The notes under the pieces: generated by a model | The model's database searches: none | What the model was told of the DNA's origin: nothing | Seen by the model: only the letters and a program-made list of their open reading frames with translations | DNA from: an uncultured Alphaproteobacteria bacterium | GTDB taxonomy: Bacteria > Pseudomonadota > Alphaproteobacteria > ATCC43930 > CGMCC-115725 | DNA: 64,000 nt | Reading direction: 5' to 3' | Assembly: GCA_963737145.1 (NCBI GenBank) | Contig: CAVTRO010000006.1 | Coordinates: forward strand, 130,911 to 194,910 | Shown here: piece by piece, positions 10,204 through 59,745 of the stretch | How the letters are laid out: every line of letters starts with the position of its first letter | How positions within the stretch are numbered: position 1 is the stretch's first letter | Position numbers and translations under genes: made by a program

Positions 10204-10307
10204 CGGCGCCCGGTTAGGTGGGCGGAATCCGGGATTGACCGCGGGCGTCGAACGGTAAACCATTCTTCGACCATTGCTTTCGCCGTCAGAGGGAGGATCA
10301 GCCCGCG

Positions 10308-11475
10308 ATGAGCATCAAGAACAAGGCCTATATTGTCGGGATCTACGAGCATCCGACGCGCAAGGCCGAGGACAAATCGCTCGCCCAATTGCACGCCGAA
10401 GTCGGCCAAGGGAGCGATCGAGGACGCCGGCCTCAATAAGAGTGACATCGACGGCTATTTTTGCGCCGGCGATGCGCCGGGCCTCGGGCCTCTATCGATG
10501 GCCGATTACATGGGATTGAAGCTGCGCCACATGGATTCGACCGATAGCGGCGGGTCGTCGTATATCATTCATGTGGGCCACGCCGCCGAGGCGATCGCGC
10601 TCGGCAAATGCAACATCGCGTTGATCACGCTCGCCGGCAGGCCGCGCAGCGAGGGCCAGGCGACCGGCACCGCGGCGCGCACCGCGCAGAACACGCCCGA
10701 CGCGCCGTTCGAAAACCCTTACGGTCCGGCCACTGCGAACATGTATGCGATGTGCGCGATGCGCCACATGCACCAGTACGGGACGACGAGCGAACAGCTC
10801 GCCTGGATCAAAGTCGCCGCCTCGCACCACGCGCAGCACAATCCGCATGCGATGCTGCGCGACGTCGTCACGGTCGAGGATGTCGTCAATTCGCCGATGA
10901 TCGCCGACCCGCTGCATCGGCTCGATTGCTGCGTAATTAGCGATGGCGGTGGGGCGATCATCGTCGCCAGCCCCGAGATGGCAAAAAGCCTGAAGCGGCC
11001 CAAGATCAAGATCCTCGGCGCCGGCGAAGCGCCCAAGCACCAGATGGGTGGGCAGATCGACCTGACCTATTCGGGCGCAGTGTGGTCCGGACCGCCGGCC
11101 TTTGCCGAGGCCGGGGTCAAGCCCGGCGACATCAAATACGCCTCGATCTATGACAGCTTCACGATTACCGTGCTGATGCAGATCGAGGACCTCGGCTTCT
11201 GCGAGAAGGGCCAGGGCGGCAAGTTCGTCTCAGACGGAAATCTGATAGCCGGCACCGGCAAATTGCCGTTCAACACCGATGGCGGCGGGCTGTGCAACAA
11301 CCACCCGGCAAACCGCGGGGGCCTCACGAAAGTCGTCGAGGCGGTGCGCCAATTGCGCGGCGAAGCGCATCCCGCGGTGCAGGTCAAGAATTGCGATCTG
11401 GCATTGGCGCACGGCACCGGCGGGTCGCTCGGCACAAGGCACGGCGCAGCGACCGTGATCATGGAGAGGGAGTGA
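10308..11475 (+). pseudogene. Thiolase-like (SCP-x/lipid-transfer type) protein, reading frame interrupted once
   Basis: The N-terminus from ATG 10308 (MSIKNKAYIVGIYEHPTRKAEDKSLAQLHAEV) is in a different frame from ORF 10333..11475 (..KGAIEDAGLNKSDIDGYF..). The frames join at gtcGGcc around 10401-10408. Confidence 0.8.
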
Positions 11476-11479
11476 GCAG

Positions 11480-11872
11480 ATGCCGGCTCAGGAACGCAAG
11501 ATCCAGGCCCCGCAGCCCAATCCCGAAACCCAGGCGTTCTGGAAGGCCGCTGAGGAAGGCAAATTGATGATCGGCAAATGCAATGCCTGTGGGGCGGCGC
11601 ATTACTACCCGCGCGCGATCTGCCCGTTCTGCTTCAGCGACAAGACCGAATTGCAGCAGGCCTCGGGCAATGGCACGATCTACACCTACAGCGTCATGCG
11701 GCGGGCGCCGATCCCTTATGCCATCGCCTATGTGGCATTGAGCGAGGGTCCGACGATGATGACCAACATCGTCGATTGCGACCTCGACAAGATCCGCATC
11801 GGGCAGGCGGTCCGCCTCGTCTTCAAACCGACCGACGGCGGGCCGCCGATGCCGATGTTCACGCTGACTTGA
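11480..11872 (+). CDS. Zn-ribbon/OB-fold protein (DUF35), usual partner of SCP-x type thiolases
   Basis: CNACG..CPFC zinc ribbon followed by an OB-fold segment. It starts 4 nt after the thiolase-like stop. Confidence 0.8.
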   Translation: MPAQERKIQAPQPNPETQAFWKAAEEGKLMIGKCNACGAAHYYPRAICPFCFSDKTELQQASGNGTIYTYSVMRRAPIPYAIAYVALSEGPTMMTNIVDCDLDKIRIGQAVRLVFKPTDGGPPMPMFTLT

Positions 11873-11890
11873 AATCCTTCAGCCCCGAAA

Positions 11891-14088
11891 TCAGCGCCAC
11901 TTTATCCGGCTGATTATATCGGAGCGTTCGTCGGTCCACAGCGCGGAGCTAGGTGCCGGGGCTGGCGGCTCCCAACCGAGATTGGCCTCGAGGAAATCCA
12001 GATCGCCACCACGCTGTGAGACAGCGATTACCTCGGTTTCGGCGTCTTCGATCTTGTTTGGCTCGGCAGGCCGATAGTGAAGGTGCCGCGCGGATGCGCC
12101 GGCGTCGGCGGCGAGCGCAGTGATGAGCGGCACGAGATCAAGGTATCGGTTGCTGATGTGAAACAAGATGATGCCGTGGGCCGCGAGCTTTCTTTGATAC
12201 AACGCGAGCGCTTCCCGGGTCAGAAGGTGAACCGGAATGCTGTCGGAGCTGAAGGCGTCGATGACGATAGCGTCGTACGATTGATCGGGCTCGTCTAGGA
12301 GGGTGAGCCGGGCGTCGCCGAATACGAGACGTGGCGTGTCGCCACCTCCGGTCAAGAAATGAAAAAAGCGTGTGTCTCGGGCGAGCTGCTCGACCGCCGG
12401 ATGAATCTCGTGAAACACCCAAACCTGCCCCGGGTGAGCATAAAAACCAAGTTCGCCCGCGCCGAGCCCGACCACCCCAACCCGCTCTAGCGGTCGCGCG
12501 GCTGCCGCTTTGAAGAAGCGGCCGAACGGCCCATTCTGGCGATAATACCCAAGCGGAACCCCCTCATCTCCCGGCCGTGTACCCTCGACGCCATGGATCG
12601 TGGTGCCGTGTTGCAGTACTCTGAGCGCGCCGTCGTCGACCACTCGCACACGATACACGCCGAAAAAGCTACGGGTGGTTTCAAGCGTTCCGCTGAGGTT
12701 GGCCAGTTGCACCACCAAAAGGCAGGCGGCAATTCCCAGAGCAAAGGCCCGCGCCGCTCGCTGAGGTAGAGGAGGACCAAAGCGGTGAGAACGAGCGCAC
12801 CGACTGCGACGAGAGCCGGTACGTTCTTCGCAAAGAAAAGCGACAACAAGACCAGGAAAACCAGGACGGGCAGGAGGACGTAGTGCCGGGCGACATTGGC
12901 CCTGCCGGGTCCGCCGACCGGGCGTATCAGACACGACGCCACGATCATCAGCGGGTATTCCCAGACATCCGGGAAGATCGCCGGCGCGATGACAGCATTG
13001 AACAACCCACCCAATACCCCGCCCAACGATATGCAGAGGTAGAATTGGGTCAGGTCTTCGACCGCCGGCCGGCGCGCCGCCAGCTCGCCATGGCAGACCA
13101 TGTCTATCACGAAGAAACCCGCCAGCTGCAGGACCAACAGCCAAATGTTTGGCGGCGCTAGAGACAGTACGATCATCGGGATGATGACCAGCGGCTGCAG
13201 TCTGACCATCAGCGGATGACCCAGCGGCGGCCGCCGTGCGAAAGCGCAGGTGAAGGTCAGGAGGTACAGCGTCAGGGGTACGACCCAGAAGAGCGGCGCC
13301 GAAGCGAGGTCGGTGGTGATATGCGTGGTGACGCCGAGAAGCAGGCTCGACGGGACAAAGGAGTAGGCAATCCAACGCAAACGGTCGGCTGTCCCGGCGG
13401 CATCACCGGCCAATTCTTGCTCTCTGGCCGGATTTTCACGGCTGCGATAGGAGAGCCAGCAAAAGGCGATCGCCGCGACGAGGATGGCGAGCCCGGCAGA
13501 CCATAGCCGGCTCTGCTCAGAGAGTGGTAGATACGGCTCAATAAGGAGCGGGTACGAAAGCAGCGCCAGCAGGCTGCCTCCGTTACTGGCCGCATAAAGA
13601 AAGTACGGATCCGCGGCGGTCTCGTGATCGGTGCGAGAAAACCAACGTTGCAGCAGCGGTGCCGTTGCCGTTATCGCGAAGAAAGGAATGCCCACGGTCG
13701 TGGTCAGGCGTAGGATGAGCCATAAGACCGGCGGTCCGTTTGGCGATTGCGCCCCTCCGGACACATCGAGCGGCAGGAACATGACGGCGAACGCCAGAAC
13801 CAGAACATGCACCCCCAGCTGTGTGCGAGGTTCGAGACACGTCGCCGAGAGATGGGCGTAAAGGTATCCAAGCAACAGCGTTGCCTGAAAAAAGCAAAGG
13901 CAGGTGTTCCACACGCTGGGCGTGCCGCCGAGTTGCGGCAGGACCATTTTGGTGAGCATCGGCTGCACCGCGAAGAGCAGGGCCGCGCTCAAGAACAGCG
14001 TGGCCGCAAAGAGCGGCAGCAGCACTTGCCTCGTAAGCATTCCGGCCGAGCGCTCTGACAACAGAACCCTATCCGGCGGCGAACTCAT
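11891..14088 (-). pseudogene. Polytopic membrane protein fused to a spermidine-synthase-like domain, one frameshift
   Basis: The N-terminal ~445 codons (frame of ORF 12487..14208, start MSSPPDRV at 14088) are multi-TM. The C-terminal domain (frame of ORF 11891..13375) carries VGVVGLGAGE and IVIDAFSSDSIP motifs. The frames join near 12745-12760. Confidence 0.75.
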
Positions 14089-14276
14089 GCCGTCTTCCCC
14101 TGCGATCGTGCCGCCACGATCCGTGGCAATGCTTTTAGAAATCGTAAAGAGGATCACCCCAGGCTTGATCTCCCGATCAGCTCCGTGTCTGCTTGCCTGG
14201 CAACCCAAAATAAGCGACGCTTCGGCTTCGAACGCGAGTTCTCGCGATGCTCCCCGGCCTATGACTGGAGAATAAA

Positions 14277-15065
14277 TTGGATACGCTCGAACCCAAGGTT
14301 TCCATGAGACCCCGCAATATCGGTCCGGAAGAGTGGGCGGTGCGAGTCGACCTCGCCGCCTGCTACAGGCTAATCGCCCATTTCGGCATGGACGATTTGA
14401 TCCTGGGCCACATCTCGGCGCGTGTGCCGGGGGCGGAGGATCAGTTTCTGATCAATCCAATGGGGCTGTTGTTCAACGAGATCACCGCTTCGAGCCTCTT
14501 GAAAATCGACATCGAGGGCAATCAGATCGAGCCGTCGGACTACGAGCCGAACCGCGCCGGCTTCATCATTCACAGCGCCATCCACATGGCGCGGCCCGAC
14601 GCCCGCTGCGTTCTGCACACCCATACCCAAGACAGCATCGCGGTCAGCGCACAGGAAGAGGGGCTCTTGCCCTTGTCGCAATGGGCGCTGCGCTTTTACG
14701 GTAACCTCGCCTATCACGATTACGAAGGCGTCTCACTCGATCTCGACGAGCGGGAGCGGCTGCAGCGCGACATCGGCCAGAATCAGGTATTGGTGTTGCG
14801 GAACCACGGCCTGTTGACCGTCGGCCACAATGTCGCCGAGGCGTTTTCGCTGACCTATTACTTCGAGCAGGCGGCGCGGGCTCAGCTCAAGATGCAGGCG
14901 GCTGCCGCGGCGGGCGCCAAGGTCCTGTTTCCATCAAAGGAAGCCTGCGAGCAGTCAGCGGCGCGCCCGCGCGGTAATGAGGGGCAACTGCCGCTCGCCG
15001 GGCAACGCGAATGGCCGGCCCTGCTGCGGCTCGCCGACAAGCTCGATCCGAGCTACCAAAACTGA
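14277..15065 (+). CDS. Class II aldolase/adducin family protein
   Basis: 262-aa ORF (TTG 14277, or ATG 14304) with metal-binding histidine context VLHTHT and NHGLLTVG. Confidence 0.85.
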   Translation: MDTLEPKVSMRPRNIGPEEWAVRVDLAACYRLIAHFGMDDLILGHISARVPGAEDQFLINPMGLLFNEITASSLLKIDIEGNQIEPSDYEPNRAGFIIHSAIHMARPDARCVLHTHTQDSIAVSAQEEGLLPLSQWALRFYGNLAYHDYEGVSLDLDERERLQRDIGQNQVLVLRNHGLLTVGHNVAEAFSLTYYFEQAARAQLKMQAAAAAGAKVLFPSKEACEQSAARPRGNEGQLPLAGQREWPALLRLADKLDPSYQN

Positions 15066-15076
15066 CCTGAGCCGCG

Positions 15077-15607
15077 TCAGCGGCGCCCGCACTGCTCCCG
15101 TTCGGCTCGGACCTGGCCAAGGCGGTATTGCAGGTGCTCGCGCTCTTCGCCGTAGGGGGTCTGGGCAAGCCTGTCGCGCAGCTCGTGCTCCTCATGTCTT
15201 AATCCCTCACACCGCTCGCGATAGCCATGCTCTTCGCCGTACCGTGGCGGCGGTGCATAACCCGGCGGGGGGTACCCCGGCGCGGGCGCATATCCGGGTC
15301 CAGGATAGCCAGGCGTTTGGGCTTCTCGCGGTGGCGGCACGGGAGCAGCAGGCCGGCCGCCATTGCAGACCAACTGACCGTTGTTGTTGCCGATATCCCC
15401 GACGCAATGCGTCACATTGAGGGCCGTCCGCTGATCGCCGCGCCCATTGGCTCTACGGCACACCGCGGTCAAGGTACCGCCCTGCATTCTGAAATCCCTG
15501 CAGCTCTGCTGATAGGAGCCCGGCGGCAGCCCCTGTGCATTTGCCGCAAAGGCCAGCCCCGCCAGCGCTGCCGCCGCGAACAACCCGGATACTATTTTCA
15601 CCTTCAA
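15077..15607 (-). CDS. Secreted protein with a single CVNH-like (cyanovirin-N homology) half-repeat, a PGY-rich linker and a charged helical tail
   Basis: Signal peptide MKVKIVSGLFAAAALAGLAFAANA. The segment SCRDFRMQGGTLTAVCRRANGRGDQRTALNVTHCVGDIGNNNGQLVC follows the C..L.A.C...G.....L....C...I.N.NG.L pattern of CVNH repeats. It is followed by PGYPGPGYAPAPGYPPPGYAPPP. Confidence 0.55.
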   Translation of the reverse strand: MKVKIVSGLFAAAALAGLAFAANAQGLPPGSYQQSCRDFRMQGGTLTAVCRRANGRGDQRTALNVTHCVGDIGNNNGQLVCNGGRPAAPVPPPREAQTPGYPGPGYAPAPGYPPPGYAPPPRYGEEHGYRERCEGLRHEEHELRDRLAQTPYGEEREHLQYRLGQVRAEREQCGRR

Positions 15608-15674
15608 CTCCCGCCCGTTGATGAATCCGATAACGGACGAAACGAGCCGGAAAGTTCCGGGTGCGTCGTGGTTC

Positions 15675-16487
15675 TCAAGCGAGCCAACGTTTGCGGCGGC
15701 GGTAATGCTTCACGTCGCGGTAACTCTTCCGCCCGGTGGCCGAGAGCCCGAGATAAAATTCCTTGACGTCCTCGTTGCTGCGCAACTCGGCCGCGGTCCC
15801 GTCCATCACGATCCGCCCGTTTTCGAGAATATAGCCGTACTGCGCATGGCGCAGCGCGATATTGGTGTTCTGCTCGGCGACCAAAAAACCGACATGCTCA
15901 TTCTCGTTCAGCCGGCCGACAATAGCGAAAATCTCCTCGACCAATAGGGGCGCCAGGCCCAGCGAAGGCTCGTCCAGCAGAATCATCTTTGGCTTCGACA
16001 TCAGCGCCCGGCCGATCGCGGTCATCTGCTGCTCGCCGCCGGAGGTGTAGCCGGCGATGGCGCCGCGCCGGATCTTGAGGCGCGGGAAATAGCTGTAGAC
16101 CTTGTCAAGATCCTCGGCGATCCGCGCCCGGCCATCGCGCCGCGTATAGGCGCCGGTCAGCAGATTTTCTTCGACGGTCAGATGCGCAAAGCAGTGGCGC
16201 CCTTCCATGACCTGGATCAGCCCGCGCTTGACGACTTCGGCGGCATCGAGCGCGTCGGTACGCTCGCCGGCAAAGGTGATCGAGCCCTTGGTCGCCTCGC
16301 CGCGCTCGGCGCGCAACAGGTTGGAAATCGCCTTCAACGTCGTCGTCTTGCCGGCGCCGTTGCCGCCGAGCAGCGCAACGATGCCGCCCTCCCCCACTTC
16401 GAGCGAGACGCCCTTCAGCACCAAAATGACGTGGTTGTAAATGACCTCGATGTTGTTGACGGAGAGGAGCGCGCCCGCTTCGGTCAT
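15675..16487 (-). CDS. Branched-chain amino acid (HAAT) type ABC transporter ATP-binding protein, LivF-like
   Basis: Walker A GGNGAGKTT, signature SGGEQQM, Walker B ILLDEPSLGL and a basic C-terminal tail. The start MTEAGALLSV is at 16487. Confidence 0.9.
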   Translation of the reverse strand: MTEAGALLSVNNIEVIYNHVILVLKGVSLEVGEGGIVALLGGNGAGKTTTLKAISNLLRAERGEATKGSITFAGERTDALDAAEVVKRGLIQVMEGRHCFAHLTVEENLLTGAYTRRDGRARIAEDLDKVYSYFPRLKIRRGAIAGYTSGGEQQMTAIGRALMSKPKMILLDEPSLGLAPLLVEEIFAIVGRLNENEHVGFLVAEQNTNIALRHAQYGYILENGRIVMDGTAAELRSNEDVKEFYLGLSATGRKSYRDVKHYRRRKRWLA

Positions 16488-17830
16488 CAGTTGCTTTGGG
16501 TCCTCACATTTGCTTCGAGCAGTCGCGCGGGGTAATGCCTTTCTCCTTCGCGTAAGCGATCGCCGAAATCCTTGTACATCTCGGTCAGCATTGCGCGGTC
16601 CGGTTGGATCCAATCGGAGACGAATTTCCAGTGCTTGCCGTCCCACTGCTGGATCCGCACTTGGCCGTTGCCTTCATGGTTGGCGCAGGAGAGCTGGATC
16701 GGCACCATCAGCCCGTCGGCGCCGAGTTGCGCTATGCGCTGCGGCGTGATGTCGAGGTGCTCGTAGCCCCACTGCACCTCTTCGCCCTTGAGCGGCTTCT
16801 TGCCGAATTTGGCCTGCGCGGTGCGGATCGCCTCGAGATCGTAGATCGCGTTGATTACGCCGCGGTTGTAGAGCACCTCGCCGACTTTGTCTCGCGTGGT
16901 GCGGCCGCCGTTCTTGTCATAGACGTATTTGAAGATGTCCTTGATCACCGGATAATCCTGCCCGGCGCCGTGGAACGTGCCCGATTTGTAGCCGACCGCC
17001 GCCTCGCCGGCGGGCAGGACGTCGGGTTCGGAGCCCGACCACCACACGCCGATGAAATGGTCCATCGGATATCCGACCGAGGCCGCGCCCTTGATCGCGG
17101 TCGAGTTCATCACTCCCCAGCCCCACATCAAAAGCCAGTCCGGCCGCTGTTGGCGGATCTGCAGCCAGGTTGCCGACTGCTCGATCCCCGGGGCCGAAAC
17201 CGGGTATTTGAGGAACGTGTAGCCGTATTTCTGCGACAGCTTTTCGAGCGTCGCGATCGGCTCCTTGCCGTAGGCGATGTCGATGTAGACGAGGCCGATC
17301 TTCTTGCCTTTGAGCTTGTCGAGGCCGCCCAACTGCTCCCCGACATATTTGACCATCGCGTCCGCCTGCGCCCAATAGGTCGCGGGCAACGTGAAAACAT
17401 AAGGGAAAACGGCGCCGTCGCTAGCGTCGGCGCGGCCGTAGCCCATCGAGACGACTGGGATCTTGTCGGCCGTCGCGCGCTCGATCAGAGCGTAGGTGAT
17501 GCCGGTCGACAACGGGTCGACGAGGCTGGCGCCGGTCGGCCCCTTGTTCTTGAGCCGCTCATAGCACTCCACGCCTTTGTCGTTATTGTAGCCGGTTTCG
17601 CATTCCTCGTAGGTGATCTTGACGCCGCCGACCCCGCCGTCGCGCGCGTCGATCATGTCGAGATAATCGGCATAGCCGTCCGCAAACGGGATGCCGTTCG
17701 GCGCATAGGGGCCGGTGCGATAGACGAGGCGCGGAATGAATTGCTCGTTCTGCGCGAACGCGCTGGCGGCGCCAAGGCCGAATACCGCGATCGCGAGCGC
17801 GGTCCACGCCAATGCTGTCTTGACCCTCAT
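16487..17830 (-). CDS. HAAT-type ABC transporter periplasmic substrate-binding protein (3' end frameshifted)
   Basis: Signal peptide MRVKTALAWTALAIAVFGLGAASAFA from ATG 17830, then a type I periplasmic binding fold. The last ~18 codons change frame at the AAA run 16566-16568. The alternative frame reads IAYAKEKGITPRDCSKQM with a stop at 16504. Confidence 0.85.
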   Translation of the reverse strand: MRVKTALAWTALAIAVFGLGAASAFAQNEQFIPRLVYRTGPYAPNGIPFADGYADYLDMIDARDGGVGGVKITYEECETGYNNDKGVECYERLKNKGPTGASLVDPLSTGITYALIERATADKIPVVSMGYGRADASDGAVFPYVFTLPATYWAQADAMVKYVGEQLGGLDKLKGKKIGLVYIDIAYGKEPIATLEKLSQKYGYTFLKYPVSAPGIEQSATWLQIRQQRPDWLLMWGWGVMNSTAIKGAASVGYPMDHFIGVWWSGSEPDVLPAGEAAVGYKSGTFHGAGQDYPVIKDIFKYVYDKNGGRTTRDKVGEVLYNRGVINAIYDLEAIRTAQAKFGKKPLKGEEVQWGYEHLDITPQRIAQLGADGLMVPIQLSCANHEGNGQVRIQQWDGKHWKFVSDWIQPDRAMLTEMYKDFGDRLREGERHYPARLLEANVRTQSN

Positions 17831-18334
17831 CTCATCCTCCCTGCGACCCAGATGCAACCGGGCATTGCTGCGCCAGAGATTACGTGGGCAGCCGACCCGG
17901 CGCAATCTTTCCAATCCCAGTGCGAACGTGCGGTTCGGCATAGCCCATTCCGGGCCAGACCGTTCAGGTCCGCCTGCCGCCAACTTGACCGACCATTCCA
18001 GGCTCCCGCTCCCCCAAGGACGGGCCGGAGCACGCCGCCATGCCGGATCGTCAGCCGGCATTTCGAAGGCCGCTCGCGCATGTCGCCGCTCGGAAACCGC
18101 GAGAGGCTGGAGGCGGCGCCAGAGACATTCAAGCTCCGCCTGATTGATTCCGGTGACGGCGCGGCCGGCATCAACCAATCTTCCGTCGGGTTCGTAATGC
18201 GACGAGCAACAGCGATCCGAGCCACGGCCGCCGGCCCTCCGGATCGGTCCAACCGACCATGAGGCAAATCCAAACCTCAGCAATTCTCGGGCTCTCACGA
18301 ACCCTGCGAGGTACCAAGCGGACGCGATAATGGA

Positions 18335-18940
18335 CTAGTTTCGGACGCTGTCGAGGATGTGCACATCGTCTACCACGGGCGGATGACCTGAGGCGGGGAG
18401 CGCGCCAGATGCCTGCATTAGGTGCTCATTGGCCACGATCCGATGCGAACGCGTCCGCTGAAGGTCGACATTCAGACCTGGCGATACGGTAATATGATTC
18501 GGCCAGCCCGTCCGAGCTGCCAGTCGCCCCGGTTGGAGCCGATATAGCGATTTCCAGAGAGGGGCGGGACCCTCATCCCGCAGCGGCGAGGGCCTTTTCG
18601 AGCTCAATCTCGGCGGCGAGGCTGTCACGATCGCGCCCGATCGTCAGAAGGGCCAGGTTGCGGCCGCTCTGCCAGTAAGTCACCGCGCAGTCCTTCGCCA
18701 TTCCGAGGTCGCCGGCCTCACGGCGAGGATAGGAGCCGAGATCCTCAGTCGGGGTGAATTGTTTCGGGTTAACGAAAATCGACGCGACAATCCGATCGCA
18801 CTCCGCATCGGCGGCTCGGACCAGCGCCATATGCCCTTCATGCAACGCGCCCATCGTCGGCACCAGGCCGACCCGCCGGTCGCCGACCTTGCGCCAAAGG
18901 ACGACATGGCTGCGCAGGTCGGCGACAATTCGTCTATTTC
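18335..18940 (-). pseudogene. panC: Degraded, shortened relic of pantoate--beta-alanine ligase
   Basis: The clear PanC N-terminal core is [52 protein letters not shown]. Downstream similarity is only patchy, spread across three frames (GDWQL.., ..ILDSVRN stop). The relic is ~600 bp against ~850 bp expected, and no start codon is evident. Confidence 0.55.
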
Positions 18941-18951
18941 CACGGACGCCC

Positions 18952-20734: not shown

Positions 20735-20749
20735 GTCGCGCCGGACGCA

Positions 20750-22040: not shown

Positions 22041-22153
22041 TCCTCGCACTCCTGCAAGCCGACACCTGAAAATCCGGCGGGATTCAACGCTTCTATAGGC
22101 CGCGCTCCGCCGCGGCAAGCCGGTAACCATCGGCCTCGGCTAGAACCCCGGGG

Positions 22154-38972: not shown

Positions 38973-38999
38973 GAGATCCGGGTTAACGGTGGAGATGTC

Positions 39000-44160: not shown

Positions 44161-44183
44161 CTGCAGTTCCTCCCGAAAGTAGC

Positions 44184-44211: not shown

Positions 44212-44220
44212 AGAAGTTCC

Positions 44221-46049: not shown

Positions 46050-46082
46050 CCGCAGGCGGGGCTCGAAAGGAGGGAACCAGCA

Positions 46083-47303: not shown

Positions 47304-47306
47304 CCC

Positions 47307-51033: not shown

Positions 51034-51034
51034 G

Positions 51035-51619
51035 CTACGGCCCCGGGTTGGGATTGTCTTTTAGGGGAGGGATCGCGCGGCAGATATTCGTACATCGCGC
51101 TCAGATCGCGATCGGTTTTCCAGCGATACAGTGGCCACGGCATTACCTGCAGCAGGCGCCCAGAATATCCCGATGGGGATCATGGCCGGTCTGCATGACT
51201 TCGAGAAATGCGTGCCAGGTCAGTCCTGCCGGCATGCCGTCTCTTTTTGTCCGGGGTGATGTTCGCGGAAAAGACAGTGTGACCATCAACCGGATCCGGC
51301 CCGAACTGTCGCCCACCCGCCAGATATTCCGCCGTATTGATCTGCTCCGGCTATCCCAGGTAGGGATTGCCGCTGTTTGTATAGTTCGGATGGGTGTGGC
51401 AATCGTTGCAGCCGGTCGAGTTGACCAGATAGCTGCCGAGACCGACCAGCGCCCAGTCTTTCCCTGCGAAGTTGAGCTTGCTGCCTCCGGAAAGATTTCA
51501 GGCGACGATCTCATAGCCGCGCAGAATCTGGCTGATCTCATCGGCCCGCCCGGCGGACACTTGCAGCATCGTCGCCAATGCAGACCGCTGCGATCCACCA
51601 TACCGGATACGCGCGACAA
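51035..51619 (-). pseudogene. Small c-type cytochrome relic with an in-frame TAG and several frameshifts
   Basis: The minus strand reads ..LNFAGKDWALVGLGSYLVNSTGCNDCHTHPNYTNSGNPYLG-TAG-PEQINTAEYLAGGRQFGP.., with the stop at 51350-52. It continues in shifted frames as ..DGMPAGLTWHAFLEVMQTGHDP.., ..LLQVMPWPLYRWKTDRDLSAMYEYL.. and ..RAIPPLKDNPNPGP. The haem motif is CNDCH. Confidence 0.55.
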
Positions 51620-51762
51620 TACGCATTTCCATTCGCCGAACCTTCCGCTTGCTCATACGCAGCGGCCGGTTCTAGCCGCCGAATGCGTCAACAAACTGTC
51701 AGGGCAGCAAGGATGGCGCCGGCTGTCGGCCGGACCAGCCTCCCGGGCGATCGATGTACCAG

Positions 51763-52146
51763 TTATTCCGGCTTGAAGCAGTAGGCGGCGAGCTTGTTGC
51801 CGTCGAGATCGCGGACATAGGCCGCATAGGCACTGGGATGCCAGCTGCGCGGCCCGACCGGGCCTTCATCCTTGCCGCCGGCCGCGAGGGCGGCCTTGTG
51901 GAATTCTGCAACCGCCGCACGGCTCGGCGCGACGAAGCTGATCGTGCCGCCATTGGCGAAGCTCGCCGGTTGTCCGTTGGCCGGCTTCAGCACGAAGAAT
52001 TCCGGCGCCAATTCGCCCCAGATCGAGCCGTTCTCGCCCAGATCGTTCAAACGCTTGTAGCCGAGCGTGCCCAGCACGCGGTCATAAAAGGAGCGCGCCT
52101 TCGCAAGGTCGTTCGTTCCCACCGTGACATGCGTAAATATGGCCAT
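51763..52146 (-). CDS. VOC family (glyoxalase/bleomycin-resistance fold) protein
   Basis: 127 aa from MAIFTHVTVGTNDLAKARSFYDRVLG, ending ..YVRDLDGNKLAAYCF. Confidence 0.8.
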   Translation of the reverse strand: MAIFTHVTVGTNDLAKARSFYDRVLGTLGYKRLNDLGENGSIWGELAPEFFVLKPANGQPASFANGGTISFVAPSRAAVAEFHKAALAAGGKDEGPVGPRSWHPSAYAAYVRDLDGNKLAAYCFKPE

Positions 52147-52662
52147 CCGATCCTCCTCAAGACACAAGCGCCCCGTTCAAATGCGCCGCCGGTGCAGATT
52201 ACCGGTTTCGCAAAGGAGGGTAAACGGCGGATTCCGTGATGGCCGAGCCAGCCGGCTTTAGCTCTCAGATGCCGGACATCGAGTTATATCCGGCATTAAC
52301 TTCGAATTTTGTCTACTTAACCACCAATTCCCCGGCAATTTTAAGTTTTAGAACCTAAGGTCGCCTTCCGACGCGAGAAGCCGGATGAGGTCTGGCAAAC
52401 GCGCTCCGGATGGAGACGAGGATGCGATTTGCGATGCCGCTATGGACGAGCTGTCTCGGACGGGATTGTCTCGTGCTCGAGCTCGGTCAGCGGCGGAAGC
52501 ACGGCGGCCCGGCAAACCTCGGACAACGCGGTCCGATGTCGGAATGGCGTAAATGGCGAGTGCGCCGGCCGACGGCGCATGGTCGCTGTTCGGGCTGGAA
52601 CGCAAAGCCGACGATGCCGTCTCGAACGCCCGCTATACGATCGACTGAACTGGAGAGAAATT

Positions 52663-52857
52663 ATGTTGTCCGATTTCGAAGTCCTGCGCGCCGCTGACCA
52701 GATGATGCACGAATTCGGCGAGCATGCCGAGCTCCAGGCCGCCAAATACGCCGATCTGATGCTGGGACACAGCAACCGGGCCGCGCTTCTGGTCTGGGCC
52801 CGCATCTGGCGCACGATCGCCGAGAAGCGCCCGGCGCAGACCGGGTTACCGCATTGA
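52663..52857 (+). CDS. Small conserved-looking hypothetical protein (64 aa)
   Basis: An ATG with GGAGAG 8 nt upstream, followed by helical sequence MLSDFEVLRAADQMMHEFGEHAELQAAKYADLMLG... I recall similar small proteins in Rhizobiales but cannot name the family. Confidence 0.5.
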   Translation: MLSDFEVLRAADQMMHEFGEHAELQAAKYADLMLGHSNRAALLVWARIWRTIAEKRPAQTGLPH

Positions 52858-53836
52858 CGATAGAGCCGCGCAGGAAGTCGATCATCGCGGCGTTGACTTC
52901 CGCGGCCCGCTCCTGCTGCGTCCAGTGGCCGCAACCCGGCAGGATGATGGTGCTGCGAAGCTCGGGAACGAATTGCGACAGATTGGGAATAAGCTGGTCC
53001 ATGCCGGGGAACCTCACCACGGGATCGCGGTCGCCGGCGATGTAGAGCGCGGGCACGGTCACCCGCGCTCCGGCAAAGGCGGCGAGGAGCTCCCAGTTGC
53101 GATCAATGTTGCGGTAATAGTTGAGGCCGCCGCGAAACCCGGTGCGGGCGAATTCATCGGCGTAGAAATCGACGTCGGCCTCGGTCAGCCAGGAAGGCAG
53201 GGTCACGGGGTTCACGAAGTGAGTGCTCCAGCGCGCGAGTAGGCCGCCTTGGCGCGGCACCATGAGGGCGGCGGCCTCACCTTGCGGCATATCCCCGGAG
53301 ATCGAATAGAGGCTGGCCGCGGATAAACCAGCGGATATCGTGCTCGAATTCGGCCTCGGCCACACCCGGGGTCTGGAAATAAAGCTGATAGAAGACCGCA
53401 TCGTCGGTCTGCGGCATGACGGTGGTCGGGCGGACCGCACCGCGTGGCCGGAACGGCACGCTGAGCCCAATCACGCCGCGGAAGCGGTCGGGGCGCAGCA
53501 GCGCGGCATGCCACGCCACCGGCGCGCCCCAGTCGTGACCGGCGATGACAGCCTGCTCGGCGCCCAAGGCGTCGAGCAGACCGACCATGTCGCCAATCAG
53601 GTGGAAGAGCGTGTATTGGTCGATCGCCTCGGGGCGATCGGTCCGGCCGTAGCCGCGCATGTCGGGTGCCACGGCATGGAAACCCGGCCTCGGCGAGCGC
53701 CGGCAGCTGGTGCCGCCAGGAATACCAGGATTCGGGAAAACCGTGGCAGAGCAGCGACCAGCGGACCCGTCCCTTGCTCGGCCAAGTGAATGCGGATCCC
53801 GTTCGCCTCGACGGTACGGTGGCTGATCTGGGTCAT
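52846..53836 (-). pseudogene. Alpha/beta hydrolase (epoxide hydrolase-like), 3-4 frameshifts
   Basis: Pieces are MTQISHRTVEANGIRIHLAEQGTGPLV / LLCHGFPESWYSWRHQLPALAEAG (third frame) / FHAVAPDMRGYGRTD..IAGHDWGAPVAW..AEAEFEHDI / AGLSAASLYSISGD..YRNIDRNWE..PGCGHWTQQERAAEVNAAMIDFL. The 3' end is uncertain: the uninterrupted frame would run antisense through 52663..52857. Confidence 0.75.
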
Positions 53837-53912
53837 CCGCGATCTCCTTCCCCGTGGATGACTGCGGATCGTATGCTCCCGGCCGGCGATCACCAAAGGA
53901 AAGGAGTCGACC

Positions 53913-54459
53913 ATGGCCAGGCTGCAGCCGATCACCGGCAAGGAACAGGTTCCGGCAAAGGACCACGCCGATCGTGGACGCCATCGCCCAGAGCCGCGGC
54001 GCCATTCAGGGGCCGTTCACGATGTTTCTGCACTGTCCGGAGCTGGCCGGCCGTGTCGCTCATCTCGGCGCGTTTGTGCGCTTCGAGGGCTCTCTCGACA
54101 TGCGGGCTCGGGTGCTCGCCGCGATGACCGTCGCGCGCGAGTTCGAAGCGGTCTATGTCTGGGGTGCTCAGACCGGCGGCGCGCGGCGTCAGGGCGTGCC
54201 GGAGGCGACGATTACGGCGATCCGCGAGAACCACTCGCGCGGCATCCCGCCAGAAGACGCCGAAATCGTCGACTTCACGCGGCAACTCCTCCGCAAGCAC
54301 CGGGTCGACGAGGCGACCGCCGGCTCACTTCGGAAGCGGTTCGGCGATCAGGGTTTCATCGAGCTGACCGGCGCCATCGGGTACTACAGCATGCTGGCGA
54401 TGACCGTGAATGCGTGCGAGCTCGAAGCCGCTCCGGGCGCTGAAGTGCTGCAAGTCTGA
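53913..54459 (+). pseudogene. Carboxymuconolactone decarboxylase (AhpD-like) family protein, one frameshift
   Basis: MARLQPITGKEQVPAKDHA (frame of ORF 53913) continues as ..VDAIAQSRGAIQGPFTMFLHCPELAGRVAHLGAFVRFEG.. (ORF 53854..54459). The join is near 53965. Confidence 0.75.
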
Positions 54460-54516
54460 ACCCGGTCCCGGCGTGAGCGCCGCAGCTGCCGCGGCGCCCG
54501 ATCGATGCCTCTAGGC

Positions 54517-54789
54517 TTAGCGGCCGTATCCGTAGCCGTGATCATAAGGCGGGGCGCTGCTGCCATACCCTTCATGGTAGGCCCGCTCGCGAGCGTGCTT
54601 GGTGGCCTCGTGATGGCCGATGATGCAGCCCGCACCGGCGCCGAGCAGCCCGTGGTGGCCGACAAAATGCCCGGCGACGCCGCCGATGAGGGCGCCTTTC
54701 AAGCAGCCCCTGGCCGACGCCGGGGTCGAACCCAACGCAAGTCCTGTCACCGCGACCGCAAAAGCCGCGGGGAGCAGTATCGCTTTCAT
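54517..54789 (-). CDS. Small secreted glycine-zipper protein
   Basis: Signal peptide MKAILLPAAFAVAVTGLALGSTPASA, then a GxxxG-rich segment GALIGGVAGHFVGHHGLLGAGAGCIIG and a His/Tyr/Gly-rich tail. Confidence 0.55.
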   Translation of the reverse strand: MKAILLPAAFAVAVTGLALGSTPASARGCLKGALIGGVAGHFVGHHGLLGAGAGCIIGHHEATKHARERAYHEGYGSSAPPYDHGYGYGR

Positions 54790-55082
54790 GTGAAACTCCT
54801 TCAGACGGGTTGTTGCTGGTAGCCAACAGACCCCAGCAACCGCAGGTTCCCGCACTGAGCGAGATCGCGCTAAAGCAAAGCGAAGGTCTCAAACTGTAAA
54901 TGGAAGGCAACATCTTCCGAAGCCACGTAACGAAATCATATGTCGTGTTGAATGACATAAGAGTTACATTTCGATTACAACATTTTACCAAATACCGGAG
55001 TGCCGTTCATACGCCGATTACAGAGGAGCGCGTAAGTTTTAGGCAACGCCCGAGACGGGGGATTCGCTGGAAGGAAGAACCA

Positions 55083-55619
55083 ATGTCCGAATTTAATGGT
55101 CTCGTCGAGCGAGAGATTCCAAGGCTTCGGCGCTATGCGCGGGCGCTCACCCGCAGCGCCGATCGCGCAGACGATCTCGTGCAGGAGACGTTGCTGCGCG
55201 CGATCTCCAAGTCCCATCTTTGGCAGACCGGCACCGACATTCGCGCCTGGCTCTTCACGATCATGCACAATCACTATGTCAACATGGTGCGCCGTGCGAT
55301 GCGCGACGAGGCGACCGTCGACATCGAGCAGATGTCGTCCTCGCTCGTCGCCGTCACGGATCCGACTGCATCGAGCCAGCTTCGCGAGCTCGAGCAATCG
55401 CTCGCCCGCCTGCCCGGGGAGCAACGCGAGGTGATCCTGCTCGTCGGGCTCGAAGGAATGTCTTACGAGACCGCGGCAAAAGTCCTCAGTGTCCCGGTAG
55501 GCACGGTTCGCTCGCGCCTGTCGCGCGGCCGTGACGCGCTGCGCCGTCTGATGGGTCTGCCGGAAAAGGCCGCAAGAGCGGTCGAGGCCCCGAGCGAAGC
55601 TGCGCCTCTCGCAGCCTAG
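55083..55619 (+). CDS. ECF-type RNA polymerase sigma-70 family factor
   Basis: Region 2 is DLVQETLLRAI..IRAWLFTIMHN. Region 4 HTH is SYETAAKVLSVPVGTVRSRLSRGRDAL. The protein is 178 aa from ATG 55083. Confidence 0.9.
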   Translation: MSEFNGLVEREIPRLRRYARALTRSADRADDLVQETLLRAISKSHLWQTGTDIRAWLFTIMHNHYVNMVRRAMRDEATVDIEQMSSSLVAVTDPTASSQLRELEQSLARLPGEQREVILLVGLEGMSYETAAKVLSVPVGTVRSRLSRGRDALRRLMGLPEKAARAVEAPSEAAPLAA

Positions 55620-55635
55620 CTGCCTCCTCCTGCGT

Positions 55636-55660
55636 AGTGGCGTCGCGACCCTGCGCCACT
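55636..55660. terminator. Inverted repeat between convergent genes (candidate bidirectional terminator)
   Basis: agtggcg-N11-cgccact lies between the sigma factor stop (55619) and the enolase-superfamily stop (55668). Confidence 0.4.
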
Positions 55661-55667
55661 ATCGCGT

Positions 55668-56868
55668 TTACGGCTGACGATAACTGAGCAGGCCGCCCCC
55701 ACCCGCGGGCGGATGGGCGCGGATTGCCTCCTCGTCGGGCTCTGTGCCCCAGCCCGGCTCGTCGGGCACCACAAGGTGCCCGTCTTCGAATTGCGGCGCG
55801 TTGGTGAACAATTCCTCGTCCCAAGGCAGGCGATCGATATCGACTTCCATGATCCGCAGATTGGGCGTGGCGGCTGCGAAATGCGCGTTCATCATCGTGG
55901 CCAGGTGGCCGTAGAAATTATGCGGCGCGATATTGACCTCGTGGGCATCGGCGGCGGCGGCGATCTTCATCGACTGCCAGACCCCGTTCCACACCGCGTC
56001 GACGATCGCGACATCCATCGACTGCTCGCGGAAATAGGGCAGGAATTCGCGCAATCCGAGCAGGGTCTCGCACGAGCTGATCGGGTGCGGGCTCTGCCGG
56101 CGGATATAGGCGAGCGCCGCGGGGTTATAGCTGTCGATCTCGACCCAGAACATCTCGATGTCGGCGATCGCCCGCAGGATCTTCAGATACCCCTCGGTCT
56201 TGGCGTTGAAGTTCAGGTCGAGCAGCAGGTCGACATTCGGGCCCGGCGCCGTCGCGTATGGCTTCGAGGTGAGCGCGCAAGTTGCGCAGCACCGGTTTGT
56301 CGACATTGAGCTCGGGCATGAACGGAACCCCAAACCCGGGGCGCCAGCCGCGCGGAGCGCCCCCGTCGTAGATGAAGATGTTGGTTTTCAGCGCGCTGAA
56401 ACCCTTGTCGCGCACTTCGGCGCCGATCGCCTTTACGCCGTCGAGACTGGTGATCGCGGGTTTGTAGAGGGTCGGATGATTTATCCGCCAAGTCGCGCAA
56501 TGCGACCAATAAACCCGGATCCGGTCTCGCACCTTGCCGCCGAGGAGCGCGTGGCACGGCACCCCGAGCGCCTTGGCCTTGGCGTCGAGCAGCGCATTCT
56601 CGATGGCGCCGAGCCCTTCGGCGACAACGCCACCCGCTGCCGGGCGGGTGAAGCAATACAGCTCGGTATAGATCCGCTCGTGGTCGAACACCGGCTGGCC
56701 GACAACCCGCCCGGCGAGCCGCTCGATGACCGCGCTGACCCCGGGCGAGCCGAAGCCCTCGTCGAACTCGCTCCAGCCGACGACGCCCTCGTCGGTGGTC
56801 AGTTTGAGGAAGTGATAGTTTCGCCACCCGGCATCGCAGCGAAGAATTTCGAGGCCCTTGACCTTCAT
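55668..56868 (-). pseudogene. Mandelate racemase/muconate lactonizing enzyme (enolase superfamily) protein, one frameshift
   Basis: MKVKGLEILRCDAGWRNYHFLKLTTDEGVVGWSEF....LRAHLEAIRDGAGP (ORF 56125..56886) continues as NVDLLLDLNFNAKTEGY..FWVEIDS.. (ORF 55668..56333). The join is at GGGCCC 56238-56243. Confidence 0.8.
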
Positions 56869-57063
56869 CGGCGCATTCTCCCCCATTGGCGTGCCCGGTT
56901 AAACATAGCCAACACTCGCCGACGCCGCATCTCCGCATCATGATCGCGCGGGGTTTGGCGGATTGGAAATACCTCCTGTAGCGATGCTTGACACAATTAC
57001 CTGCCAAACGCAGTATTATCGTGATAACGGCAGCAATTAACCAATATTACTGCGGGAGGGCGC

Positions 57064-58194
57064 GATGAGAAGAGCATTGATCGATACGTCAATTGCGGCG
57101 TTGCTGCTGACCGGCGGCATAATGCCGGCCGGCGCCTGGGATCGCGGCTACGCCGAGATTTCGCGGTTCTGCCGGACTTGCCGGGCGGGCCGGTGCCGAG
57201 CGAAGGGTTGACGGTCGGCCCGGACGGCACGGTTTACACGCCGACCTTTGGCATCAACAGCCAGGGCGCGGTGCCTGGCCCGCCGCATTTGTTCTCCTTC
57301 AAACCGAACGGCCAGCTGCTCTACGATGTTGCGCTGGTCAATCCGGCGGGCCCGCAGCCCAGCACCCTCCTGCTCGGATTGGTGTTTCAGAAATCTTCCA
57401 AGACATTGCTGATCTGCGACCTTTCCAACGGCATCGTCTGGCAGGCCAATCCGAAAACGGGCAAAGCAACCGTGTTCATGAACACCGGACAGGGTTCGAA
57501 TTCCGGCCTCAACGCGCTGACCTTCGACAAGGCGGGCAACGTCTACGTGTCGGATTCGTTTTTGGGCGTCATCTGGAAGACCGGCCCCAACGGCGGGTCC
57601 CCCTCGATTTTCGTCAATTCTCAGACATTGTCGCCGCAGGCCGCAACGGGGGTGATCCTGGTGCCGCCATTCGGCGCCAACGGCGTCGAGTTCAACAACG
57701 AATATACCGAGATGTACGTCGCGAACACCGCCTATCACTCGATCGTCGAGGTCCCTGTGACCCTGAACCAAGACGGCTCCGTATCGGTGGCCGGCCAGGC
57801 GCAGGTGCTGACGACCGGCATCAACGCACCCGACGGCATCGCGGTCGACAGCCACGACAATCTCTGGGTCGATGCCAATCAGCAGGACGAGATCGAGGTC
57901 ATCAACCCCAACGTCGTCACGTCGCAAGGCACCTCGCAAAGGTCATTGCCAAGCGCGGCGATTTCCAGGGCATCAGCGAAGGACGGCACGGTGCAGGGGC
58001 TGCTCTTCCCGGCGAGCCCGGCGTTCAGCCCTGACGGGAACTACATCTATACGTCGAACCTCGCTTTGTTCCTCCCCTTTGCGGGAGTTCCGGAGACGGC
58101 GATCAATTCGCCCTGGACGCTCCAGGTCAAGCACTACACGATCGCCAAGATGCGCGCCGAAATCCCTCCGCTGACCGAGCAGGAAGAGAAATAA
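57064..58194 (+). pseudogene. Secreted SMP-30/gluconolactonase/LRE-like beta-propeller protein, about 3 frameshifts
   Basis: Signal MRRALIDTSIAALLLTGGIMPAGA from ATG 57064 is out of frame with ORF 57178..58194, joining near 57165. A compensating frameshift pair lies around 57930-57975: ..GKVIAKRGDFQGIS.. is readable only in another frame. Confidence 0.75.
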
Positions 58195-58207
58195 GCGAGC
58201 TATCCGA

Positions 58208-58979
58208 TCACGGGCGCACCGCCGGGGCGTCCATCGGCATGCCGCGGGCCCGCTCCATCAGGTAGAGTTCGAGGGCGACGGCTTGGGGAGCGCCATAGTC
58301 GAAGGCTCGGCGCGCACGCCGGTCATGCAGTTGCGCAGACGGCGCTGCAGCGAGCCGAGGCTCTGCCATTCGAGGCGATAGATCGGGTACCCGGTCGGGT
58401 GTGCCTGCGGGATCACGCTACCGGCGAGGCGCTTGCCCCAGTTGTCGTCGTGGCACTGGCTGCAGGACAGGTTCAGCTGACCTTCGCGCTGGTGGAACAG
58501 TTCTTTGCCCAGATCGAGAAACGGGCGCAGCTCGGGGCCTGCGGCTACCGCGATCGGCAGGCCGCGCGACTGACGAGCGACAAACGCGGTCAGCGCGAGC
58601 AGGTCGTCGCTTTCCCAGGCCAGCGGCTCCGCCCTCTGATACTCGGTGCGGCAGCGGTTGATCCGCTGCTCGAGATCGAGCGGGCGGGCCGAGGCGGCGT
58701 CGAACGCCGGGTAGTGGGCGGCGACTCCCTTCATGCTGGCCTCGGCATCGCCATGACAATCCTGACAGGATTTCGCGGCTGCACCCGCTTTTCTGGCCCA
58801 TAGGCTTTCGCCTTGCAGACACCCACAGCATGCCGGGGTTGGCGGTCTCGTCATCCTGCATCGCCCGGATTTCGGGGCTGGCGAAATCATAGCCCGAGCG
58901 CCTCGCCTCGGGCGCAATCTCGGCTGCGACCGCCGTTGCGGCGGCCAAGCGCGAGCCCCGCCGCGAGCAATGCCCTCAT
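58208..58979 (-). pseudogene. soxA: SoxA-type dihaem cytochrome c, about 3 frameshifts
   Basis: MRALLAAGLAL / AAATAVAAEIAPEARRSGYDFASPEIRAMQDDETANPGMLWV / ..GESLWARKAGAAAKSCQDCHGD....LNLSCSQCHDDNWGKRLAG..NCMTGVRAEP / FDYGAPQAVALELYLMERARGMPMDAPAVRP. The haem motifs are CQDCH and CSQCH. The joins are near 58945, 58810 and 58301. The ATG overlaps the soxZ stop (ATGA). Confidence 0.75.
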
Positions 58980-59296
58980 TCTACGGTGATTTGACGGATC
59001 TCGCTTTGGATCTGACCGTTATCGTCGATCCAGCTGAAGACCAGTTCGCCGCTCTCCGTCGCTATAGTCGAAAAGGCGATGAACGGGTTCGCGGATATCG
59101 CCGGGAACAGCTCGGCCCGGAACACCTCGTCGCCGTTATAGAGGCAAGTGAACCGGCTGATGATGTCGCGCGGGATTGCCGCGCCCTTGTTGTCGAGGCG
59201 ATAGCCGGTCTCCATCGGATGTTGGATCAGGGTCTTGATCTCGATGATTTCGCCGCGCTTTGCGCGCGGCGGGAAGTTGATCAATACCCGCGCCAT
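58976..59296 (-). CDS. soxZ: Thiosulfate oxidation carrier complex protein SoxZ
   Basis: 106 aa: MARVLINFPPRAKRGEIIEIKTLIQHPMETGYR..RFTCLYNGDEVFRAELFPAISANPF... This is a typical SoxZ sequence and size. Confidence 0.85.
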   Translation of the reverse strand: MARVLINFPPRAKRGEIIEIKTLIQHPMETGYRLDNKGAAIPRDIISRFTCLYNGDEVFRAELFPAISANPFIAFSTIATESGELVFSWIDDNGQIQSEIRQITVE

Positions 59297-59303
59297 CGGC
59301 TCT

Positions 59304-59745
59304 TCACTGCTCGGTGCAGGCCGCCAATGTCACGATGACATCGGCGCTGTCCGACCAGAAGCTGCCATCGGCGAGCCGCGCGATCGCGACGACCCGTTGC
59401 GAGTCGGCAAGCCGAATGCGCGCTCGCGACGCGAGCCTTGCCGGCGCGCGGGCCGAAATGGAACGCCGCGACGTAAGGCTGCGGGTTCTTCTGGTTGAAG
59501 ATATGGATGCTCTCGACGTGGTCGGCCTCGGTCATCGGGCTCTCGACCGACACGGTCAGCGGCACGGTATTGCCGTTCTCGACGATCGACGGCAATTCGA
59601 GCTTGACCTTGCCGGGTGTTAGCGGCGCCTCTCCGATCAAATCGCGGATCGCCTCTGCCATCGCCTCCTCCGTCGCGCCGGCTGCTGGAGCGAACGACGC
59701 GAGCCCAGCTCCGGCTGCCATTAGGATTACCCAACGACGGGTCGG
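59304..59745 (-). pseudogene. soxY: SoxY-type sulfur carrier protein with a non-canonical C-terminal arm, one frameshift, start unresolved
   Basis: A Tat-like TRRWVILMAAGAGLASFAPAAGA, then ..KVKLELPSIVENGNTVPLTVSVESPMTEADHVESIHIFNQKNPQPYVAAFHFGPRAGKA... After a frame change near 59400-59420 it reads ..RIRLADSQRVVAIARLADGSFWSDSADVIVTLAACTEQ (stop at 59304-06). There is no in-frame start between the Tat motif and the REP elements. Confidence 0.75.

Follow-up and report, generated by a model that had tools for sequence, protein, structure and literature searches.

The window analysed here is a stretch of 64,000 nucleotides (nt) of contig CAVTRO010000006.1 from an uncultured alphaproteobacterium (assembly GCA_963737145.1), in which about 20 genes located between 10.3 and 59.4 kb cannot be read in a single frame. 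These frameshifts are very probably a technical artefact of a locally poor consensus and not the result of gene decay. We favor this reading because the lesions are confined to this assembly, are one nucleotide long, occur in coding and non-coding DNA, can be removed to restore the genes and are not accompanied by relaxed selection. It is also favored because relatives assembled from short reads carry intact genes and a relative assembled from Nanopore reads only has private frameshifts of its own. A preliminary description, made from the sequence alone, had left the choice between a patchily mis-called assembly and a lineage losing its accessory metabolism. The analyses below lend strong support to the first option, while the second is unsupported as far as the frameshifts are concerned.

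To find relatives of the window, the GTP cyclohydrolase II gene (23348-24619, minus strand) was used as an anchor, and one genome per GTDB species was scanned. The closest relatives were uncultured soil Alphaproteobacteria, mostly labelled Stellaceae. Two of them share 97% amino-acid (aa) identity with the GTP cyclohydrolase II of the window and about 88-92% nucleotide identity with the window itself: L001, a scaffold of an Illumina metagenome-assembled genome (MAG), and L002 (CAVOHI010000065.1), a Nanopore-only long-read MAG of the Microflora Danica project. Short-read soil contigs from JGI (L081-L109) covered positions 7946-11872 and 14264-17909, a 1.45-Mb ENA contig (L161) covered 52286-64000, and L162 and L164 covered parts of 33.5-48.5 kb. 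Frame switches were called with a six-frame codon-usage Viterbi model, a frameshift-aware blastx was run against the open reading frames (ORFs) of relatives, and Pfam was run across frames. Lesions were polarised by three-way alignment, with 25 insertions judged against at least two relatives and 31 against one. The GC content of the window is 64%. An Rfam scan of the window returned no RNA family, and megablast against plasmids gave no close match, so that it does not correspond to any known plasmid.

The count of about 20 frameshifted genes, obtained from the Viterbi model, the alignments, Pfam and blastx, agrees with the earlier estimate that about 21 of some 70 genes need frame switching. 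On the minus strand of 18583-23013, the Viterbi model placed about 19 same-strand frame switches, and it placed more in the other genes listed below. The translated alignment to relatives that the preliminary description had proposed split the same genes across frames. Using blastx, a single orthologue was spread over several window frames for the thiolase-like, DUF1688, radical-SAM-like, DedA, CitE-like and thiamine pyrophosphate (TPP) enzyme genes, and the alpha/beta-hydrolase, SMP-30, soxA and soxY genes were likewise split between frames. Using Pfam, positions 6-72 of the FAD_binding_3 profile were matched in one frame and positions 108-335 in another, and MR_MLE_N and MR_MLE_C fell in separate frames. 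The damaged zones and their genes are the following.

18960-25710: hot zone 1, with about 22 single-base (+1) insertions and at least two deletions (frame model and L002 alignment).
18960-20740: two sugar ABC permeases, frameshifted, in hot zone 1.
20760-22059: solute-binding protein, frameshifted, in hot zone 1.
22157-23400: DUF1688 gene, with five frameshifts, in hot zone 1.
23348-24619, minus strand: GTP cyclohydrolase II, intact, a single ORF without indels relative to L001 and L002, in a 1.6-kb clean island (23026-24636).
24780-25710: radical-SAM-like gene, frameshifted, in hot zone 1.
49837-55100: hot zone 2, comprising genes and intergenic spacers.
49837-51016: FAD monooxygenase, with FAD_binding_3 in two frames.
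51038-51671, minus strand: cytochrome c gene, with at least nine indels and an in-frame TAG.
Within hot zone 2: an ORF of 74 aa.
52871-53863, minus strand: alpha/beta hydrolase, in hot zone 2.
53881-54458, plus strand: AhpD-like gene, in hot zone 2.
55673-56884, minus strand: enolase-superfamily gene, with a single frameshift at about 56240-56275 and the MR_MLE halves in different frames.
57041-59750: moderately damaged zone (L161 alignment and blastx frame changes).
57159 (-1), 57932 (-1) and 57981 (+1): SMP-30-like gene (L161 alignment).
58303 (-1) and 58820 (+1): soxA (L161 alignment).
59421 (+1): soxY (L161 alignment), with the neighbouring soxZ intact.

The damage is strongly clustered. 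In the 40.1 kb that could be compared, 92 one-nucleotide indels were found, and their distribution in 500-nt bins departs from a Poisson-type expectation (chi2 = 182, df = 81, p = 1e-9, dispersion 2.25), as the preliminary description had proposed from the reading frames. It had also counted at least 15 disruptions in 18952-23361, where DNA alignment to L002 gave 18 +1 insertions and at least two deletions. Conversely, the zones described as clean are clean wherever relatives allowed the comparison, namely at 7946-10300, 33473-36686 (coding sequence), 38990-40003, 44224-48477 and 59920-64000; for positions 1-7946, cleanness was judged from the ORF structure alone.

This distribution follows position and not gene function. 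Within 7.9-17.9 kb, only 2 lesions fall in the roughly 7.5 kb of accessory genes, compared with about 25 lesions in 6.7 kb within 19-25.7 kb. Many accessory genes are intact, including those encoding the luciferase-like (LLM) monooxygenase, the CoA-transferase, the acyl-CoA dehydrogenase, the MFS transporter, TerC, the SAM hydroxide adenosyltransferase, GTP cyclohydrolase II, SoxZ and FCSD. The statement that the housekeeping genes are intact thus holds for glnA, glnB, the aminotransferase gene and BacA/UppP, but the functional pattern that it implied does not, since many accessory genes are intact too.

We next describe the lesions themselves. All coding lesions are exactly 1 nt long. A total of 56 +1 insertions were catalogued, 25 of them polarised by at least two relatives and 31 more absent from the one relative available. 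Among the events polarised by at least two relatives, about 25 are insertions and 3 are deletions. The 1-nt deletions attributable to the window are located at 20600, 20916, 57159, 57932 and 58303; six apparent deletions were seen in 19390-21370 by comparison with L002, of which the frame model backs only 20600 and 20916. Within the region aligned to both L001 and L002 (21852-26480), insertions private to the window are present at 21948, 22327, 22402, 22687, 22857, 23025, 24637, 24824, 24948 and 25668. Twelve more, in the region 52286-55700, are absent from both L161 and L002 (52532, 52574, 52864, 53317, 53680, 53754, 53866, 53908, 53970, 54863, 54950 and 55024), and those at 51077-51756 were compared with L002 only. 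Intergenic DNA is affected in the same way, with insertions polarised by two relatives at 24637, 53866, 53908, 54863, 54950 and 55024. In the clean zones, the usual intergenic differences from the same relatives are mixed in size (1, 2, 4, 11 and 25 nt).

No sharing of window insertions was found for those compared with two or more relatives (L001, L002, L161 and the JGI contigs), the closest of which has about 91% nucleotide identity. The short-read relatives L001, L086, L101 and L082 have intact ORFs. L002 carries private frameshifts at 24602 and 26249 (window numbering). In its locus, around positions 12500-15650 and 9950, the genes for an ABC binding protein and for a permease are broken up into overlapping ORFs, and surplus bases lie in the 5' end of its GTP cyclohydrolase II gene and in TerC. 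L002, being a Nanopore MAG with broken ABC genes, is not a clean reference. The MAGs of its source received only one round of Medaka polishing (PMC12313526).

The preliminary description attributed the indels to length errors in short homopolymers, the error type of 454, Ion Torrent and classical Nanopore data. The count of inserted bases shows otherwise: 39 of the 56 (70%) differ from both neighbours, compared with 53% expected for random insertion, and only 7 of the 56 lie in runs of at least three bases, where random insertion predicts 17.5%. At two of the sites named as homopolymer lesions (AAA at 24946-24948 and CCC at 25669-25671), the length of the run is unchanged: a G inserted at 24948 interrupts a run of five A, and a T at 25668 precedes the CCC. 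A third, given as gtcGGcc near 10404, is really an extra A at 10399 within GAGTC.

This last site belongs to a second pattern. Six of the 56 insertions fall within GANTC (10399, 16566, 21284, 29526, 30605 and 54863), against a background of 0.63% (binomial p = 1.5e-6). GANTC is the recognition site of CcrM, a conserved alphaproteobacterial adenine methyltransferase. The concentration of insertions in this motif points to Nanopore-type miscalls. Among the 3- to 5-mers scanned around the insertions, none other than GANTC was enriched, and no GANNTC-type interrupted motif was found near the frameshifts located where relatives are lacking (12713, 50051, 50840 and 56275). As a separate observation, the 64-kb window contains 67 GANTC sites, compared with about 200 roughly estimated from base composition, so the motif is apparently strongly under-represented. 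Six hits stand alone in zones that are clean apart from them, and four of these are GANTC insertions (10399, 16566, 29526 and 30605). The only coding lesions in 7946-17915, a region covered by up to six short-read contigs, are those at 10399 and 16566. The lesions outside the hot zones are as follows.

10399, plus strand: extra A in the thiolase-like gene, within GAGTC (GANTC), absent from four Illumina relatives.
11894-14208, minus strand: membrane/spermidine-synthase-like fusion gene with a frame switch near 12713 (frame model and three-frame translation).
16566, minus strand: extra A (GAATC to GAAATC) in a branched-chain-type binding protein gene, absent from three relatives and altering the last 20 or so codons.
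29526, minus strand: extra T in DedA, within GATTC; its removal gives a clean frame of 209 codons.
30605, plus strand: extra T in the CitE-like gene, within GATTC; its removal gives a clean ORF of 285 aa.
43535, minus strand: extra base in the TPP enzyme gene; its removal gives a clean frame of 576 codons.

If the frameshifts reflected genuine decay, the affected genes should bear other marks of it. Once the surplus bases were deleted, five genes could be read at full length without a stop: the radical-SAM-like gene (three deletions), DedA, the CitE-like gene, the AhpD-like gene and the TPP enzyme gene. The frame-corrected DUF1688, hydrolase and AhpD-like genes contain no stop, and no in-frame stop was found across six frame-corrected genes. 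Intact orthologous ORFs then served as templates for a projection of the window, and the nonsynonymous (N) and synonymous (S) changes private to each lineage were counted. For DUF1688, the private N/S counts are 10/18 in the window, 25/40 in L001 and 18/42 in L002. Window-private counts are 4/16 for the radical-SAM-like gene, 5/15 for the hydrolase and 1/5 for the AhpD-like gene, each with zero in-frame stops, and 4/26 for the intact GTP cyclohydrolase II gene. Pooled over the four frameshifted genes, which together carry 13 frameshifts, the window has 20 N and 54 S changes (27% N), similar to the 29% N of the relatives (Fisher p = 0.78) and far from the neutral expectation of 70-74% N (binomial p = 3e-14). 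The data for these four genes are compatible with at most about 16 hidden neutral substitutions beside the 13 frameshifts. The frameshifted genes thus show no relaxed selection.

These results bear directly on ongoing pseudogenisation, in which accessory metabolism would be in the course of being lost, with frameshifts fixed and housekeeping genes kept by purifying selection. We consider this explanation very unlikely. It would account for the intact glnA, glnB, aminotransferase and BacA/UppP genes, for the sparing of GTP cyclohydrolase II within a hot zone, for 1-nt indels that lie in spacers and not in coding sequence in clean zones, and for the lesions other than indels (the TAG, panC and the BON relic, described below). 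However, genes with up to five frameshifts show N/S counts like those of relatives, and the four multi-hit genes, once frame-corrected, are free of in-frame stops; the cytochrome c TAG is the one genuine in-frame stop seen besides the frameshifts. In bacterial pseudogenes, substitutions far outnumber indels, and indels are biased toward deletion and broad in size. Here, indels are at least equal in number to hidden neutral substitutions, and the lesions insert single bases, for the most part outside homopolymers, without deletion bias. Many accessory genes being intact, damage by position and not by function also argues against decay, as does the absence of the insertions from every relative wherever two or more were compared. 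The enrichment in a methylation motif has no mutational rationale.

A different possibility is that the surplus bases are real but recent, a localised burst of +1 insertions, produced for example by patchy error-prone repair synthesis, that happened too recently for substitutions to follow. The kilobase-scale clustering, the insertion bias and the absence of accompanying substitutions would all fit such an event. To our knowledge, no bacterial process yields context-free single-base insertions at 4-5/kb over separate patches without substitutions. Moreover, dozens of knock-outs, sox genes and transporters included, would have to be simultaneous and fixed at once, and the GANTC-linked subclass suggests an error of basecalling rather than of mutation. 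Such a burst is extremely unlikely, and we give equally little credence to the corresponding picture of a soil Stellaceae-like lineage in which recent +1 bursts preferring GANTC have inactivated about 20 accessory genes. If true, it would mean that frameshifts can be generated in clusters in a way that has not been described before. Programmed frameshifting and transcriptional slippage were also considered and rejected, as single genes have up to five or more shifts, no slippery motif is common to them, and spacers are affected.

Under the preferred explanation of an assembly error, the window would be part of a long-read, most likely Nanopore-type, metagenome contig with a locally poor consensus, in which two classes of error may be distinguished. 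The first would consist of context-free spurious single-base calls, mainly insertions, which reach about 4-5/kb in three patches, at about 19-25.7, 50-55 and 57-59.5 kb, compared with about 0.1/kb in coding sequence elsewhere. The second would consist of isolated surplus A/T calls within GANTC, the CcrM methylation site of Alphaproteobacteria. The affected genes would be functional in the organism, and only the surplus bases would make gene callers see them as truncated. We infer a Nanopore-type platform, and methylation of this organism's DNA by CcrM is presumed by analogy from its alphaproteobacterial (Stellaceae-like) affiliation. A source contig of 221,936 bp in a soil-type lineage is in keeping with assembly from long reads. 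The patchiness could arise from locally low or uneven coverage, partial polishing (with short reads, for instance), strain heterogeneity, a mosaic contig or protein-guided frame correction. Classical Nanopore consensus errors are homopolymer deletions. Nanopore consensus indels are known to cause frameshifts in a coverage-dependent manner (PMC9262707), and methylation motifs dominate the consensus errors of Oxford Nanopore data (PMC6591954), being a known source of systematic errors in them (also PMC11610573 and PMC11610603).

Several observations weigh against this explanation. The insertions are mostly non-homopolymer, unlike the classical Nanopore profile, which leaves the platform uncertain, with errors of the PacBio continuous long read (CLR) type or of a low-coverage consensus as alternative sources. 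No correlation was seen between error density and local nucleotide identity with relatives (rho = -0.17, p = 0.18). The GTP cyclohydrolase II island (23026-24636) is clean amid about 3.7 events/kb, for which a hand-calculated Poisson probability is about 0.003. The classic housekeeping genes are all clean, as selection would also yield. The spacer between glnB and the aminotransferase gene (35310-35497) has three 1-nt differences from L164 (35319, 35340 and 35401), the sole relative compared there, so that their direction is unassigned, while no such difference is present in 3 kb of coding sequence on its flanks. Finally, the panC truncation, the BON relic and the TAG are not indel artefacts and may be genuine strain-level differences.

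These three non-indel lesions, reported in the preliminary description, were found again here:

18576-18959, minus strand: panC fragment with only the N-terminal 90 or so codons (Pfam Pantoate_ligase, positions 6-87 of 268).
38227-38960, plus strand: relic whose reading frame changes several times, with part of a BON domain (frame model).
51351-51353, minus strand: in-frame TAG (CTA on the plus strand) in the cytochrome c gene, a substitution where L002 has CAG.

The BON fragment corresponds to positions 25-65 of 69 in Pfam (about 38836-38958), in a region lacking coverage by close relatives. The stop codon had been reported at 51350-51352; it is present, with coordinates shifted by one base. 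Codon projection on the L002 ORF reads 'PYLG*PEQIN' in the window and 'PYMGQPKQLN' in L002; a second apparent stop in this projection was resolved by manual re-reading of the alignment into a compensating +1/-1 pair near 51477-51497. Alternatively, panC may be a chimeric join and the TAG a substitution miscall. In either case, the verdict on the frameshifts is unchanged.

The panC fragment ends at a synteny break with L002, at about 18705. L002 has a full panC of 281 aa, the remaining part of which is unmatched in the window, and its order is a block ending at window position 55619, then panC, then a block starting at window position 18705. This arrangement is relevant to the possibility that close populations, assembled at different depths, were combined in the contig as a mosaic or chimera, or that collapsed strain variants were written as extra bases. 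We regard this as a tentative but plausible possibility, and it refines the explanation by assembly error rather than competing with it. Besides the L002 join itself, error density rises just past the synteny breaks at 17909-18705 and drops close to an interruption of the L161 alignment at 59.5-59.9 kb, and soil populations have high microdiversity (PMC12313526). On the other hand, no break in synteny accompanies the transition at about 25.7 kb, and local divergence, as noted above, is no predictor of error density. We also considered that an inserted base could be the tandem allele of a single-nucleotide polymorphism, that is, a synonymous alternative to its neighbour; 11 of 17 insertions fit, compared with about 50% estimated by chance.

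Other differences in gene content were observed along the window. The segment of about 800 nt between the two synteny breakpoints (17910-18705) has no match among the 164 loci retrieved, and the frame model reads it as non-coding; it may be a scar left by a rearrangement, or else a join made in assembly. The 2.4-kb segment at 11873-14263, which carries the spermidine-synthase-like fusion, looks like a strain-variable insertion: most relatives join 11872 to 14264, and it is partly present in L088 only, with 78% nucleotide identity. The enolase-superfamily gene (55701-56870) is missing from both L161 and L002. L161 joins 55700 to 56871, and in L002 the same point, downstream of a sigma-70 gene, is occupied by panC. 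Three lineages thus have three arrangements at this position, which is therefore a gene-content hotspot.

Smaller elements were also noted. Relative to L162, the window has a 39-nt insertion at 44180-44218, between the TPP enzyme gene and the CoA-transferase gene, which has a GC-rich inverted repeat (CCCCTCTCCGCCCCCGGGGGCGGAGAGGG) and looks like a terminator or a repetitive extragenic palindromic (REP)-like element. Relative to L002, a 45-nt insertion built of repeated ATGAAGT / CAGCCCACAT units lies at 30370-30414, in the spacer ahead of the CitE-like gene. A small ORF on the minus strand (15080-15607), between a class II aldolase gene and an ABC ATPase gene, encodes a partial cyanovirin-N homology (CVNH) domain (Pfam E = 1.2e-6). 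The GTP cyclohydrolase II and DUF1688 genes (22157-24619) are neighbours in most of the 80 loci L001-L080, which belong to Alphaproteobacteria, Betaproteobacteria and some other groups; this pair resembles URC1/URC4 of the URC pyrimidine-degradation pathway, to which it may correspond.

The chief value of these findings lies in quality control, the feature itself not being biological. Gene loss, pseudogene load, completeness, and missing sulfur-oxidation or transport functions inferred from this genome would be wrong. The shortened SMP-30 gene already has a counterpart in the protein database, where a 333-aa product is 100% identical to it, compared with about 376 aa for homologues. A heuristic that checks homopolymers would overlook most of the errors here, as 70% lie outside them. 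In long-read MAGs of Alphaproteobacteria, surplus bases in GANTC are an inexpensive warning sign of methylation-linked miscalls that can be used without reads. The combination of private-change N/S counts with indel polarisation by two relatives serves as a general test of artefactual versus genuine frameshifts when reads are not at hand.

Compared with known systems, the window most resembles the consensus indels of long-read (Nanopore or PacBio CLR) assemblies, which are likewise assembly-private single-base indels that split genes, are repaired by one base and vary in rate with local data quality. Such indels are known to truncate predicted genes, the problem addressed by the IDEEL test (PMC9262707; proovframe preprint 10.1101/2021.08.23.457338). 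Lesions of this kind, located at different positions, are also present in the Nanopore MAG L002. The window differs from the textbook Nanopore error, a change of homopolymer length, in that its insertions are mostly outside homopolymers, and its density of 4-5/kb in the hot patches is high compared with polished long-read assemblies. Nanopore miscalls at methylation motifs, such as Dcm CCWGG in Enterobacteriaceae (PMC6591954), are likewise errors at a short motif that survive consensus calling. In the window, however, the motif is GANTC, a CcrM N6-methyladenine (m6A) site, the error inserts a base instead of substituting one, and the motif accounts for no more than about 10% of events. Reductive genomes, such as those of Mycobacterium leprae, Sodalis and recently host-restricted symbionts, are alike in having many frameshifts, with accessory genes hit and core genes intact. 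In contrast to them, the window shows no relaxed selection, no deletion bias, no large within-gene deletions, no sharing of lesions with relatives and a single in-frame stop, no insertion sequence (IS) elements were seen in it, and its GC content is normal.

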